A DNA stretch of 64,000 nucleotides from Candidatus Bathyarchaeota archaeon (GCA_963733095.1 CAVTBV010000004.1:1-64000), one strand, 5' to 3'. Counted from the stretch's first letter, positions 16,696-26,090 are shown. Notes: generated from the sequence alone by a model not told the origin. Made by a program: numbers and translations.

Positions 16696-17520
16696 TTACT
16701 TTAGCTTTTTTAGGAGTGCATTTAGCGCTTCTTCATAAGTTATCGAAATTTCACCCATTAACCCCAAATCTTTGAGTTTGGTGAAAAGTCTAGCTATCGA
16801 CGGCAATTCAAGTCCCGCGGATTCAAGCAACGCCACATCCTGCAAAACAGCGTGCATTTCTCCCCCGCCCAACAATGACCCACGACTAACAACTATTACT
16901 CGATCCGCAAGCTCCGGCAAAGCCTCCACATCATGCGTTGATACAATAATTGTCGTGCCTGCACGGTTCAATTCATTGAGTGTTTCAATCAAGCCCCGCC
17001 TAGAAACGAGGTCCAAGTTTGCCGTGGGCTCATCCAAAATTAGTAGCTCTGGTTTTAGTACTAACGCTGTGGCTAGGGAAACTTTCTTTTTTTCTCCAAA
17101 ACTGAGGCGGTGCGGCGGGCGATTCTTCAAATGCTCAATGCCCATTTTGTCGAGAACATGTGCACTTCTCTTTTTGATGTCTTCCTCTTGTAACTTGAGA
17201 TTTTTAGGTCCATATTCGATGTCTTCTATTACGCTGGGCGTGAACAGTTGGTCGTCTGGATCTTGAAATACCAAACCTATGCGCGACCTGAGTTTCTGAA
17301 AGTCTTTCGAAGTTGTTTGTTCCCCGAACACTTGGATATCGCCTTTACTCGGCATTAACAAGCCCGCTATGAGTAGGATAAGGGTTGATTTTCCTGAACC
17401 GTTTGGACCCAAAATGGCAACACGTTCACCCTGTTTAATATCTAATGATACACCTTTTAATGCGCTGACGCCTGCTGGGTAACTAAATTTGACATCTTTC
17501 ACCGAAACAATGGGCTGCAT
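16696..17520 (-). CDS. ECF Ni/Co transporter ATPase (NikO/CbiO)
   Basis: GPNGSGKST, FQDPDDQLF, LSFGEKKK, LDEPT. Confidence 0.9.
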   Translation of the reverse strand: MQPIVSVKDVKFSYPAGVSALKGVSLDIKQGERVAILGPNGSGKSTLILLIAGLLMPSKGDIQVFGEQTTSKDFQKLRSRIGLVFQDPDDQLFTPSVIEDIEYGPKNLKLQEEDIKKRSAHVLDKMGIEHLKNRPPHRLSFGEKKKVSLATALVLKPELLILDEPTANLDLVSRRGLIETLNELNRAGTTIIVSTHDVEALPELADRVIVVSRGSLLGGGEMHAVLQDVALLESAGLELPSIARLFTKLKDLGLMGEISITYEEALNALLKKLK

Positions 17521-17529
17521 ATGTCCCCT

Positions 17530-18342
17530 CTACAGTATGGCAAATAGAACGAACGCAACTATTATTGATGACGCAAAAAATATGTCCCTCAACTTGAGCG
17601 AAGGCATGACAAGTTTGCTACTGCTGTCGATTTCGAAGCCTCGAGCTTTCATCGCCAAATAAACCCTCTCTGAACGCTCGTAGGTACGAATGAACAGCGT
17701 TGCTAGAATGTTTCCTAGGTCACGGAGCGATTGCATGTTTAGGGTGCGTTTTTGCACGTAGGTTCGGGCTTCTTTAGCCATCAAGACGCTTTGGGCTTCA
17801 TGGACAGACACAAAGAAGTATCTATACGTTAACGCAAACAGTTGGACGACTACACCAGGCACTTTTATGGAAGCGAGAAGTTTGAGCATCCTATCAAACC
17901 CAGTCGAGAGAATGAGCAGTGTAAGGGATGCAACGCAGAACCAGACTCTCACGGTGAAAACCAGAAACCGTGTCACACCTTCCATGGTTACCGTTAGGTT
18001 TGCTAAGCCAATATTAGCGGTCCAAATTGGGCTGCCCGAAGTCAAGAACAGGATGGGTATTGAGATCACCGCCGCAAAGACTGGGATTAACGCTGTTCGT
18101 GAAAAGAAGTGCCTGAGCGGAATCTTTGAGGCTACCGCCAAGATGATTGGGATAACGCAGACCAAAACCAAGTATGAAAGGTTCAAGATGAAGAGTGAAG
18201 CCACAATCATCGAGATTATTGCGACCAGTTTTGCCAGGGGATTTATGGTTTGCAGAAACCCCTTTTTGCTGCTTAAATCTTCAATGTAAACCAGCGATTC
18301 TGCACCTTCAACTAAGTCTCTTAGCGATTGAGGTACTCTCAT
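17530..18342 (-). CDS. ECF Ni/Co transporter T component (NikQ/CbiQ)
   Basis: INPLAKL, TYRY, EAR and ERSERVYLAMKARG motifs. Confidence 0.9.
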   Translation of the reverse strand: MRVPQSLRDLVEGAESLVYIEDLSSKKGFLQTINPLAKLVAIISMIVASLFILNLSYLVLVCVIPIILAVASKIPLRHFFSRTALIPVFAAVISIPILFLTSGSPIWTANIGLANLTVTMEGVTRFLVFTVRVWFCVASLTLLILSTGFDRMLKLLASIKVPGVVVQLFALTYRYFFVSVHEAQSVLMAKEARTYVQKRTLNMQSLRDLGNILATLFIRTYERSERVYLAMKARGFEIDSSSKLVMPSLKLRDIFFASSIIVAFVLFAIL

Positions 18343-18641
18343 TTTCTCAACTCCTTCTTTTTCAGCAGTTTAGCAACTACAAAGCTAACAATGAACAGTA
18401 AGAGGGTGCTGGCAACGCCGACAATAAGCGCGCCCCAAACATTATCTAAACCAGGAATGCTGTAGTCGGCAAGGGGGGCTTTGTAGACGGGTTTTTCTTC
18501 CATCCCAAGCTGCTCCGCCTGTTTATCCAGCGTCTCCATAGAATACGAAAACACAAAAACACCAACTAAAACAAAAATCAAAGCAACCGTCAACCCAACT
18601 ATGAGAGTTTTTTGGTTTAGACGTTTAAAATTCTTCGTCAC
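18339..18641 (-). CDS. NikN-like (PDGLE-type) 2-TM component
   Basis: Two TMs flanking APLADYSIPG; located within the MNQO operon. Confidence 0.75.
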   Translation of the reverse strand: MTKNFKRLNQKTLIVGLTVALIFVLVGVFVFSYSMETLDKQAEQLGMEEKPVYKAPLADYSIPGLDNVWGALIVGVASTLLLFIVSFVVAKLLKKKELRK

Positions 18642-18644
18642 TTT

Positions 18645-19340
18645 TTATTCCTCCTCCTTAGACTCGATTTTGTTTTTGAACATGGGCAGTTTGCCAAGTA
18701 TGAGGCTTTTCTGCAAGACATCTGGACGCAACTTCAGCAGTGTCCCGATGAGAATTACGGTTACTATGCCCTCTGCAACACCGATTATTGAGTGGTTTAT
18801 TGCCATAGCTGGGACAGCTACGCTTAAACCATACTGGAAGGTTGGGGCGGATAAGCCAAGTTCGGTGCCTGCGGCTATGGCTGCGAGCACGTCGCCGACG
18901 AAGGCTGAAATGAAGATGGTCGCGTACAAGCTTGTGGTTGTTTTTATTTTGAAAACTTTGTTGGATGCGAGGAATATTGCACAGGGGATGAATACGCCGA
19001 TTATGCCCATGTTCAAGACGTTGGCGCCTAGTGTGGTGAGTCCGCCGTCGCCGAATAGGAATGCTTGCAGGACTATGATTATGGTTACGGATATGCATCC
19101 TGCGAAGGGTCCTAGGATTAGTCCGATTGATGCTCCTCCTAAGAGGTGGGCGGTTGTTCCGCCGATTATGGGGTAGTTCATCATCATGGCTGCAAAGAAT
19201 AGGGCGGTTAGGAGTCCCATTATGGGGACTTGTTGGTCGGTTAGTTTTATTTTTTTGATGGAGATGGTCCAGAAGAGGATTGTTATTATGAATGCGGGTA
19301 TGATGACGTTTAATGTTAGGAATCCGTCGGGTATGTGCAT
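18645..19340 (-). CDS. ECF Ni/Co S component (NikM/CbiM)
   Basis: MHIPDG N-terminus, GTTAHLLG, QAFLFGDGG..TLGAN. Confidence 0.92.
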   Translation of the reverse strand: MHIPDGFLTLNVIIPAFIITILFWTISIKKIKLTDQQVPIMGLLTALFFAAMMMNYPIIGGTTAHLLGGASIGLILGPFAGCISVTIIIVLQAFLFGDGGLTTLGANVLNMGIIGVFIPCAIFLASNKVFKIKTTTSLYATIFISAFVGDVLAAIAAGTELGLSAPTFQYGLSVAVPAMAINHSIIGVAEGIVTVILIGTLLKLRPDVLQKSLILGKLPMFKNKIESKEEE

Positions 19341-24268: not shown

Positions 24269-24442
24269 TAGTTTACCGTCGAATAAATATCAGCTAAGAG
24301 TTTAGATAATAAAAATATTTACTAAAACGTTAACACGACTCCGCCGCGTGGAAAAAAAATTTTTTAGTATAGGAGCTGGCTGCAACAAACAAGATAAGAA
24401 ATTAGCAACACTAATATGGCACAAAACTGCTTATCCATCTTA

Positions 24443-24538
24443 GTTCTTGGGGAGCTGGGAAAATGACCTGGCTGAGAGGACGGCTGTTTGCTGTCGACCC
24501 TTAGGAACCTGAACCAGGTAATACTGGCGGAGGGAAAC
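24443..24538 (+). ncRNA. TPP riboswitch (THI-box)
   Basis: GGGG..P3..CTGAGA..P3a(GACGGC/GCTGTC)..ACCC..ACCTGA.CCAG-GTAATA-CTGG-CGGAGGGAA, directly upstream of thiT. Confidence 0.92.
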
Positions 24539-24542
24539 ATAA

Positions 24543-25091
24543 TTGAACACCCCAAATACAAGTGAATATAAAAACCAAAATTCCTTTAGAAATCCCAAAG
24601 TTTTAGCTGAAACCGCGATTTTTATTGCCTTGGCAACCGCGCTAAGTCTAATTGTTGTGTATACTTTGCCACAGGGTGGATCCATCACTGCTGCATCGAT
24701 GGTTCCGATTTTGTGGTTGGCGCTTAGAAGAGGACCCAAAGTAGGTATAGCCGCAGGAGTTTTGTACGGGTTTATTCAGCTTGGCCTTTTACCCTATGTG
24801 ATTAATCCAGTGCAGTTGTTACTTGATTATCCCTTAGCATTCGGAGTCCTTGGCTTAGCAGGATTATTCCAAAAATATCCTCTTGCTGGTGCAGCTGTTG
24901 GAATTTCTGGAAGATTCATTATGCATTTTGTTGCAGGTGTATTTTACTGGGCACCAATAGAGGCTCCAAACCTAAACCCGTTTGTTTACTCAGCCGTATA
25001 CAACGCAAGCTACATACTCCCAGAACTTGTAATAAGTGGATTCATACTTTATTTGCTGCAGAAGAGTAACGTCCTGCGAGCGTTCATGTAA
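24543..25091 (+). CDS. thiT: ECF thiamine S component ThiT
   Basis: PQGGSIT, RRG.K.G, Q.LLDY.LAF, H...GV.YW, YS..YN.SY. Confidence 0.9.
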   Translation: MNTPNTSEYKNQNSFRNPKVLAETAIFIALATALSLIVVYTLPQGGSITAASMVPILWLALRRGPKVGIAAGVLYGFIQLGLLPYVINPVQLLLDYPLAFGVLGLAGLFQKYPLAGAAVGISGRFIMHFVAGVFYWAPIEAPNLNPFVYSAVYNASYILPELVISGFILYLLQKSNVLRAFM

Positions 25092-26090
25092 TTGGGAAAA
25101 CTTAATGCTAAAGAACTCCAAAAAATGTTGGATTGCATTCGGAAGGATTTTCGAGTTATCGTCCCACCCATGATTGGGTACGATGCAGGAGTACACCTTT
25201 TACATGGCAAGTATGTGGCCGTCGCAACGGATCCATGCACTGGCGTTCCTGAAGAGTGGTTTGGTTGGTTAATGATTAATTATGCTGCTTCGGATGTGGC
25301 TTTGTTTGGAGCTAGACCTGAATTTTGCACCATAACCCTCCTCGGACCGATAGGAACAAAACCTGAAGTCTTCCAAAAAATCATGAAACAAACCTGCAGT
25401 GCCGCCGACGAATTAGGAATAGCTATTGTTCGCGGGCACACAGGTATGTACGGCAGCATCAAAGAACCGCTTGGAGTATGCACAGTTTACGGAATCGTGG
25501 AACCCAAGAAGTTGATTACGCCGGGAAACGCCAAGGCGGGCGATTTGATTCTGTGCACAAAGCCGCTTGGTTTAGAGACAATTACCAACTTCTCGCTGAC
25601 CCAAAAGGAAAAAGCCCGGGAGCTCTTTGGTGCTGATAAACAAGGAGAATTCGAAAAACTGGTCTACTTGCAAAGTTGCGTAAAGGAAGCTTTTGAGCTT
25701 GCAGAAGTAGGTGGGGTCCATGCGATGCATGACGCGACGGAAGGCGGGTTTGTGGCAGCGCTCAATGAGTTGGCCGGGGCTTCCAAGGTTGGTTTTAAGG
25801 TTGAATGGGAAAAATTGCCCCTAACCAACGAGGTCTTTGCCTTGCAGAATCACTTTAAGCTCACTGATGAACAGGTCTTGGCGATGTCTTCAACGGGCAC
25901 TATTTTGGCGGCTATTAAATTAGAAATGCAAGAAAAAGTTAAAGCAGCATTAAACAAAAATGGGCTTTCATCTTGCATCATAGGTGAATTCACTGAAAAA
26001 CAAGAACGCATCTTGATTAAGAAAGGAAAAGATACACCTTTTCCAAGCCTTGCCGACGATCCCTACACACAGATTCTTTCAGGGAAATAG
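25092..26090 (+). CDS. AIR-synthase-related (PurM/ThiL/HypE fold) protein
   Basis: MGKL, G.DAG, TDP, SD...GA.P, GHT, GD..L.TK, MHDATEGG. Confidence 0.8.
   Translation: MGKLNAKELQKMLDCIRKDFRVIVPPMIGYDAGVHLLHGKYVAVATDPCTGVPEEWFGWLMINYAASDVALFGARPEFCTITLLGPIGTKPEVFQKIMKQTCSAADELGIAIVRGHTGMYGSIKEPLGVCTVYGIVEPKKLITPGNAKAGDLILCTKPLGLETITNFSLTQKEKARELFGADKQGEFEKLVYLQSCVKEAFELAEVGGVHAMHDATEGGFVAALNELAGASKVGFKVEWEKLPLTNEVFALQNHFKLTDEQVLAMSSTGTILAAIKLEMQEKVKAALNKNGLSSCIIGEFTEKQERILIKKGKDTPFPSLADDPYTQILSGK

Follow-up and report, generated by a model that had tools for sequence, protein, structure and literature searches.

The DNA analyzed here, a stretch of 64,000 nt (the window) from a genome labeled Candidatus Bathyarchaeota archaeon (GCA_963733095.1 CAVTBV010000004.1:1-64000), carries a thiamine pyrophosphate (TPP) riboswitch aptamer directly upstream of thiT, which encodes the thiamine-specific S component of an energy-coupling factor (ECF) transporter; a gene of the PurM superfamily follows, probably in one operon with thiT (Table 1). 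The aptamer was the sole riboswitch match of cmscan in the window (RF00059; 56.3 bits; gathering score, 54.3 bits; E value, 2.4e-8), it spans the full length of the model (positions 1 to 105 of 105), and RF00059 matches nothing else in the 2.84-Mb, 16-contig genome. An earlier note, made from this sequence alone, had claimed all the hallmarks of the TPP class, and this is borne out by the above-threshold covariance match and by the presence of the arms and of the core motifs (CUGAGA after P3, ACCUGA, and GCG.AGGGA), which are invariant across 83 aligned leaders. We conclude that the element is a real TPP riboswitch aptamer, conserved in relatives and predicted to bind TPP. The identity of the thiT open reading frame (ORF) is equally clear (PF09515, 140 bits against a cut-off of 25.8, E value of 1.2e-40; TIGR02357, 122.3 bits against 108.45), and the named homologues of its product, at ~67 to 72% identity, belong to entries called "Candidatus Bathyarchaeia/Bathyarchaeota archaeon."

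Table 1. Features of the thiT leader and operon, with helix pairing across 83 compact leaders
Feature	Position	Strand	Basis or remark	Cells paired	Pairs with two-sided changes
TATA-like box CTAATATG	24411..24418	+	Inferred archaeal promoter; A/T element at fixed distance in relatives		
TPP riboswitch aptamer (RF00059)	24438..24552	+	Covariance-model match		
5' flank GUUCUU	24443..24448	+	Nominal P1 5' strand; predicted better partner AGGAAC, 24503-24508		
P1 (fixed register)	24443-47 with 24536-40		As aligned	52%	5
P2	24449-51 with 24498-500	+	Pairs checked; within block 24449..24500	87%	1
P3	24454-59 with 24467-72	+	Pairs checked; enclosed by P2	99%	3
CUGAGA motif	24472-77	+	Enclosed by P2		
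P3a	24479-84 with 24490-95	+	Pairs checked; enclosed by P2	95%	5
Pyrophosphate-sensor arm (P4/P5)	24508..24533	+	Rfam alignment; pairs checked	88%	1
P4	C24508-G24533, C24509-G24532, U24510-A24531	+	G24511 opposite G24530, unpaired		
P5	24514-17 with 24524-27	+	Part of pyrophosphate-sensor arm		
GGAGGG, Shine-Dalgarno sequence embedded in aptamer	24529..24534	+	Sequence; complementarity to 16S 3' end		
A-rich spacer AAACAUAA	24535..24542	+	Nominal P1 3' strand; in-frame TAA at its end		
thiT, S component of ECF transporter, 182 aa	24543..25091	+	PF09515, TIGR02357; TTG start		
PurM-superfamily gene (AIRS/AIRS_C)	25092..26090	+	TTG abuts thiT stop TAA		

The Shine-Dalgarno (SD) sequence of thiT appears to be part of the aptamer itself. 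The coordinates of GGAGGG and its distance of 8 nt from the thiT TTG, both given in the earlier note, were confirmed in the sequence: the spacer AAACATAA at 24535-24542 separates it from TTG 24543, which is 2 nt past the last aligned base of P1 (24540). An in-frame TAA (24540-24542) closes the frame immediately 5' of this TTG, and between that stop and the Pfam ThiT domain, which starts at residue 21, there is no other ATG, GTG, or TTG; TTG 24543 is the only canonical usable start of thiT, because the next in-frame start would cut the ThiT domain. The note had assigned the SD to the 3' strand of "P4/P1," which holds for P4 and its junctions but not, in the Rfam alignment, for P1: G24529 is the last base of the J5-4 bulge, G24530 stands opposite G24511, A24531 to G24533 pair with U24510 to C24508 as the 3' strand of P4, and G24534 is the first base of J4-1. 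It was right that a separate expression platform would not fit here, since the gap between SD and start is just 8 nt and holds no terminator-like site.

The 3' end of the 16S ribosomal RNA (rRNA) of this genome, ...GGAUCACCUCCUAAG, contains CCUCC and so offers five perfect pairs to GGAGG; it was read from an archaeal small-subunit rRNA gene on contig 11 (RF01959, 1484.5 bits). When 1568 crudely called ORF starts were compared with an in-gene control, AGGAG was found upstream of 117 starts against 22 in the control and GGAGA upstream of 116 against 24, each a ~5-fold excess. GGAGG lies within 20 nt upstream of 59 of the 1568 starts, 38 of them at a spacing of 7 to 10 nt, where the genome-wide distribution peaks, and the riboswitch GGAGG is 9 nt from its TTG. 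Together these findings support the reading that GGAGG in the aptamer serves as an SD sequence.

The element is common among relatives. RF00059 matched 29 of 41 close relatives (counting the window genome, G000), made up of G000 itself, 22 of 24 other species of the window's genus, and 6 of 16 genomes of the order's other families; an even draw across the class gave 93 of 151 genomes and 48 of 79 genera, a single genome holding as many as 4 copies. Kin sequences lack independence, and every count given here is accordingly descriptive and overstates the support it lends. In a draw across the phylum the model matched 30 of 151 genomes, and the matches outside the class (20 of 131 genomes) all fell in four families, according to family tallies. 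The earlier note had described riboswitches as rare in archaea, much as the available text of PMC5473149 has archaea "sparingly use very few" classes (Euryarchaeota, 79; Crenarchaeota, 6; Korarchaeota, 1; Thaumarchaeota, 1); for the Bathyarchaeia this description fails.

The layout is conserved along with the aptamer. Start codons were taken not from annotation but as the first ATG, GTG, or TTG of an ORF with a minimum length of 120 aa (80 aa for the set of 29 loci). The sequence GGCGGAGGGAAA is identical in the 29/29 loci of relatives, and the start lies 5 to 10 nt past GGAGGG in 28 of them. The exception, L008 (G015:C4), has the usual GGAGGG-spacer-GTG, but its thiT frame stops after 16 codons, with a downstream TTG as a possible point of restart; the gene may be broken, or its start displaced. 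A TPP pattern was present upstream in 65 of 80 named ThiT loci, with the start no more than 9 nt from GGGA in 54 of the 65. With "compact" defined as a start codon no more than 12 nt past GGGA, 87 of 115 distinct aptamers, pooled from loci L001-L059 and L064-L143, were compact (ATG, 45; GTG, 28; TTG, 14). These counts support the view that placement of the SD within the aptamer is a conserved design and not the accident of one genome.

What lies beneath the aptamer varies within narrow limits, the genes identified there by Pfam being without exception thiamine genes or ECF S components. The first 26 such genes comprised 22 for ThiT and 4 for a PF07155-like ECF S component, and a further 18 comprised 9 for ThiT, 4 for ThiW, 1 PF07155-like, 1 for ThiC, and 3 without a Pfam match. 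In four loci of the same genus (L004, L024, L027, and L029) and one of the same order (L020), the transporter gene is swapped beneath the conserved leader, which drives a PF07155-like S component (weak match, ~180 aa) instead of ThiT. In other families of the phylum, TPP aptamers stand before genes for ABC-type binding proteins (L145-L148, L151, and L152). Non-compact aptamers, with platforms of the ordinary kind, occur in the class and in the phylum; among them, L145-L148 and L151 have a good P1, and in L147, L148, and L151 there is a separate platform, consisting of a CUCCUUCU stretch followed by a AGGAGGUG or AAGGAG SD and then the ABC binding-protein gene. L149 and L150 are compact (GGAGGGA, 8 nt, TTG) and precede another membrane protein. 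Several Bathyarchaeia contigs carry two TPP aptamers 1.6 to 3.6 kb apart (G061:C19 at 6091 and 8438, G141:C42 at 3525 and 5179, G126:C81 at 85 and 2956, G079:C46 at 9291 and 12585, and G163:C7 at 8045 and 11656), an arrangement suggestive of clustered thiamine genes, each under its own switch.

The 83 compact leaders were also used to test the helices, with 500 shuffles and a control in which pairing partners were slid along the alignment. The aptamer structure was paired in 85.5% of cells, compared with 80.9 ± 0.4% after shuffling (0 of 500 shuffles reached the observed value) and 34.9 to 54.0% with slid partners, and the pairs of P4 and P5 are either invariant or compensated. In 78 of the 83 leaders, the two bases that make up the g-u pair of the Rfam consensus (columns 81-100) do not pair. 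P1 is different again: in the window 2 of its 5 aligned pairs are non-standard, and in the window's genus it amounts to just GUU/AAC (-0.7 kcal/mol), whereas other lineages have a clear, covarying 5-bp P1 running up to the start codon (GGUUU/AAACC, GGUCU/AGACC, AGGGU/ACCCU). The degenerate P1, together with a score that is the lowest of the same-genus matches passing the cut-off (same-genus relatives as a whole score 53.7 to 67.6 bits, with one at 53.7), might be taken to mean that the aptamer of the window genome is in decay and no longer takes part in regulation. We find this very hard to credit, given that its core motifs are all intact, that across the genus GGCGGAGGGAAA and the helices of the arms show either identity or compensation, and that nearly all other species of the genus, as counted above, retain the element.

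A single base links the SD to the compact layout. At the u of the Rfam consensus CGuAGGGA, a G, which completes GGAGG, stands in 78 of 87 compact aptamers, in 13 of 28 classed as non-compact (a group that includes some compact ones missed by the ORF rule), and in 8 of 34 aptamers from a bacterial control, where the base preceding AGGGA is T in 23 of 34; the control covers the Bacillota, whereas the design has been reported from Actinobacteria and Cyanobacteria. The change from U to G breaks one P4 pair. These figures bear on the idea that GGAGG is kept only as aptamer core, thiT being initiated without an SD and the bulk of the bound aptamer obstructing the start codon or the 5' end of the mRNA. 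AGGGA is indeed conserved in all TPP aptamers according to the Rfam consensus, an SD is dispensable for many archaeal mRNAs in the account given in the available text of PMC8241225, and GGAGG precedes just 3.8% of the crude starts in this genome. We nevertheless regard this alternative as improbable, as it leaves the completing G tied to the compact layout at the cost of a P4 pair, with a spacing equal to the genome's SD optimum and a complementary 16S tail.

The Bacillota also show what a leader acting on the transcript looks like: relatives and controls alike have a GC hairpin plus T-run 45 to 140 nt 3' of the TPP aptamer. Six apparent start distances below 20 nt in this group were rejected as spurious ORFs overrunning terminator hairpins (judged by eye). 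Around the window aptamer we found 2 weak terminator-like sites, compared with 1.0 ± 1.0 in shuffled sequence, and none between aptamer and start. Archaeal RNA polymerase terminates at oligo-T tracts, and a T5 run does occur within thiT at ~24620-24624, so that the aptamer could in principle bind TPP and cause premature termination at an oligo-U tract, or mRNA decay; secondary-structure models, in which the SD stays partly paired in either state, would suit such a mechanism. It seems to us to have only a small chance of being correct. The T5 run falls in conserved coding sequence, no hairpin with a T-run separates aptamer and start, the relatives that do use terminators have long platforms, and a start held 5 to 10 nt past GGAGGG in 28 of 29 loci makes sense only for control of initiation.

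A 5' end of the transcript can be predicted from an A/T-rich block at a fixed distance upstream of the aptamer. In the relatives' leaders the AT fraction reaches 0.79 to 0.81 at positions -40 to -31 from the first G of P2, compared with ~0.6 outside this interval; in 53 of 81 leaders the best A/T octamer has its center at -45 to -31. Archaeal TATA boxes usually lie ~26 nt from the start, and from that spacing transcription would be predicted to begin near 24439-24443. A sigma-70 promoter scan was discarded as not meaningful for an archaeon. Among RNA-library runs, four contained relatives' aptamers as contigs (shares 0.04) and none contained RNA of the window organism. The eight records comprise five that extend over the aptamer, in part or for the most part, from the 5' side, two that cover just 24504-24539, and one in the downstream gene; a 295-nt contig of ~87% likeness bridges the aptamer and the 5' end of thiT. 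Such contigs cannot show transcript starts, and DNA was possibly present in the libraries.

We therefore favor, as the probable though by no means certain interpretation, a functional TPP riboswitch that controls the thiT-PurM-like operon by direct translation attenuation, that is, by direct occlusion of the SD. The leader, ~100 nt long, would be essentially the aptamer alone: within its pyrophosphate-sensing arm, GGAGG would form the P4 3' strand, and the 3' strand of P1 would give way to the A-rich spacer. With TPP plentiful, the P2-P3 and P4-P5 arms would be locked together and GGAGG held on CCU (24508-10); the sequestered SD would then be closed to the 30S subunit, and import would fall. 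With TPP scarce, the weak 3-bp P4 would open and leave the SD free, perhaps aided by pairing of the flank GUUCUU with AGGAAC (24503-08), which would shift and extend P2 and remove the first base of P4. That the ligand drives occlusion is suggested by this anatomy.

Ligand-free folding lends the flank helix some substance. AGGAAC consists of J2-4 plus the first base of P4, and the flank can form six pairs with it (G43-C08, U44-A07, U45-A06, C46-G05, U47-G04, and U48-A03, by the last two digits of each position), one of them G-U, for a duplex energy of -4.8 kcal/mol versus -0.7 kcal/mol for flank and spacer. The same helix is the minimum free energy (MFE) structure in the near-identical leaders L012 and L016, and an alternative seen repeatedly among the leaders joins the 5' flank (AGGUU, AGUUC) to J2-4 plus the 5' strand of P4 (GAACCU). 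For the window leader (24442-24575) the aptamer-constrained fold has -32.5 kcal/mol and the MFE fold -38.8, a gap of 6.3; across 83 leaders the median gap is 2.5 kcal/mol (range, 0 to 8.7), and 18 of the MFE folds retain native P2, whereas 32 retain native P4. The duplex between flank and GAACCU has a median of -4.5 kcal/mol in compact leaders compared with -1.7 for shuffled flanks, 27 of 67 beating 95% of their shuffles, and of -3.1 compared with -2.2 in non-compact aptamers, where 5 of 29 do so. In the ensemble, compact leaders give probabilities of 0.39 for native P4 and 0.42 for the flank paired to AACC, with the alternative ahead in 47 of 83, and 28 non-compact aptamers give 0.73 and 0.01. 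By these models the flank helix is a plausible built-in competitor that would free the SD without TPP, a proposal we put forward tentatively.

Several observations weigh against direct occlusion as we have described it. The window aptamer is just 2 bits above the gathering score, its P1 is degenerate, and the fixed-register P1 is paired in barely half of the cells across the 83 leaders, yet P1 is usually required for tight binding. The competitor helix is a thermodynamic prediction and correspondingly less certain; nearest-neighbor folding without ligand keeps G24532 and G24533 paired (unpaired probability, 0.02); and when 33 nt of coding sequence are added to the window leader, the MFE fold takes another pairing, UUGGGG (24448-24453) with CCCCAA (24550-24555). 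(CCCCAA falls in thiT codons 3 to 5; as a general switch pairing this one was set aside as window-specific, the CCCCAA codons being absent in the relatives inspected.) The complementarity of flank and spacer, the two strands of P1, is weak but not absent: duplexes of the true partners have -1.00 kcal/mol versus -0.69 ± 0.14 after permutation, and a value this low was reached by 12 of 1000 permutations. The genome makes moderate use of SD sequences, start codons were called by rule, and the counts come from related sequences. Finally, the relatives' RNA-library contigs extend upstream through the TATA-like box and, if they are RNA, speak against the predicted transcript start.

A bolder version of direct occlusion can be drawn from the same material, although we hold it to be doubtful as a whole. 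In it, the window's lineage would have abandoned the classical P1 in favor of pairing between the 5' flank and J2-4 plus the first base of P4. A ~105-nt RNA would then combine a sensor and an SD with an anti-SD, supplied by the P4 5' strand, and an anti-anti-SD, supplied by the 5' flank, in a self-contained two-state switch, the change from U to G sacrificing a P4 pair for a perfect archaeal SD. Thiamine regulation in a major archaeal class would depend mainly on this switch, and its operon would include an unrecognized thiamine kinase.

The suggestion of the earlier note that the riboswitch and thiT were acquired together from bacteria was not supported. Among the best 80 of 588 ThiT relatives, 63 loci in named genomes are labeled Bathyarchaeota, and they branch deeply in a quick, unrooted maximum-likelihood tree of those 80 (row L128 was dropped as too short). 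The window ThiT falls in starred clades of 9 and 13 rows; the latter (starred, 99) contains 11 Bathyarchaeota-labeled sequences, the window's own, and 1 from an unlabeled archaeon, with no bacterial member. Because the window ThiT lies within an archaeal clade inside this deeply branched set, a recent transfer into the window genome is unlikely; a donor and any older direction of transfer are beyond what an unrooted tree of the best 80 of 588 can resolve. Joint arrival from bacteria at whatever date also strikes us as unlikely, if less so than the other alternatives above. Four Bacillota ThiT proteins, 50 to 55% identical to the query, are placed among archaeal rows, as two pairs in the unresolved half of the tree, two of these four (L127 and L137) also have a TPP aptamer before thiT, and TPP riboswitches are overwhelmingly bacterial according to the available text of PMC5473149. 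Set against this are the bacterium-free clade nested among 63 deeply branching rows, the occurrence of the aptamer in 48 of 79 genera of the class, ahead of ThiT, ThiW, ThiC, and other genes, and the lack of an RF00059 match in the ThiT-encoding genomes scanned from Methanofastidiosum, Thermofilaceae, and a "Thaumarchaeota" metagenome-assembled genome.

No match to ThiC, ThiE, ThiN, or TPK was found in the 95%-complete genome, nor a full-length Thi4, for which there were just short flavin adenine dinucleotide (FAD)-motif matches; the organism is therefore probably unable to make thiamine and dependent on its import. The PurM-like protein scores below the SelD, ThiL, and HypE cut-offs, its best solved relatives being HypE and SelD. 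It is distinct from the canonical ThiL, which is encoded elsewhere (G000:C12:78355-79308, 252 bits). A homologue was present in 75 of 149 loci searched, directly 3' of thiT in most Bathyarchaeia ThiT loci, and the enzyme is a candidate thiamine salvage kinase. The genome has four genes of the EcfT/CbiQ family, one of them inside the window, in a CbiM-CbiQ-CbiO cobalt/nickel ECF cluster at 16696-19340 (- strand); as part of that cluster, this EcfT was ruled out as the partner of ThiT.

These results place a TPP switch in ~6 of every 10 sampled genomes of an abundant uncultured class, mostly in a minimal form of ~105 nt. This form should be testable directly in vitro and probably in Escherichia coli as well, because its SD is a standard GGAGG. 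The switch also marks a thiT-PurM-like operon in an organism that gave no match to the thiamine enzymes listed above, an indication of thiamine dependence and of a salvage enzyme that is still missing. The value of the system lies in its taxonomic reach and its convenience as a model; it offers no new principle, the mechanism being known already. To our knowledge, no archaeal TPP riboswitch has been bench-tested. The Thermococcus fluoride riboswitch is the only natural archaeal riboswitch determined experimentally, as stated in 2021 in the available text of PMC8241225. Our literature search, whose coverage is incomplete so that a prior description may exist, found nothing on TPP riboswitches of Bathyarchaeia. 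New here are the host group and the prevalence, the dominance of the design in an archaeal class that the published surveys do not reach, the SD-completing G, and possibly the flank helix.

The direct-attenuation design itself is already known. Barrick and Breaker 2007 (PMC2258182), in the portion available, defined direct translation attenuation by a start codon no more than 15 nt from the aptamer core, named TPP, preQ1, and SAM-I as the classes using it most, and noted that the purine-rich conserved 3' region of TPP aptamers substitutes for the ribosome-binding site (RBS), chiefly in Actinobacteria and Cyanobacteria. The window element resembles these bacterial riboswitches in having its start within 15 nt, an RBS made of aptamer bases, and neither a separate platform nor a terminator or sequestering hairpin. 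It differs in that the Bathyarchaeia use this layout as their main one, with a G completing a perfect GGAGG, and in that the window's genus adds a degenerate P1 and the predicted flank helix. The Bacillota thiT riboswitches (L127, L137, and the controls) share the aptamer class and transporter family with the window but differ in their downstream hairpin and T-run, which imply transcription termination. In E. coli thiM there is a separate downstream platform, and the SD lies some tens of nucleotides past the aptamer, whereas the window elements are all within the aptamer and ~6 nt of 5' flank. The thiM riboswitch is nonetheless of the same aptamer class and a translational OFF switch acting through SD access (PMC10907184, in the part available), and by analogy the two may have in common a logic of SD, pairing strand, and competitor. 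The available text of that 2024 review places TPP only under strand exchange.

Closer to home, the Thermoplasmatales, although of a different phylum, offer archaeal aptamers that may be set beside those described here. Their TPP riboswitches were reportedly placed upstream of membrane transporters by Rodionov in 2002. Accessible parts of a preprint (bioRxiv 10.1101/538918) likewise have these aptamers ahead of predicted transporters and expressed in metatranscriptomes. One of the Thermoplasma volcanium rows in the supplement of PMC2258182, of which the 5' half was available, starts CAGUUCAUAAAG-GGG-AGC, and its AGUUC flank resembles the flank that in the present leaders is complementary to GAACC. 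Outside the TPP class, the arrangement has counterparts in SAM-II, SAM-III, preQ1-I, and preQ1-II, which the available text of PMC10907184 describes as combining aptamer and RBS in one unit so that the ligand hides the RBS, with folds and ligands different from those of the TPP riboswitch.

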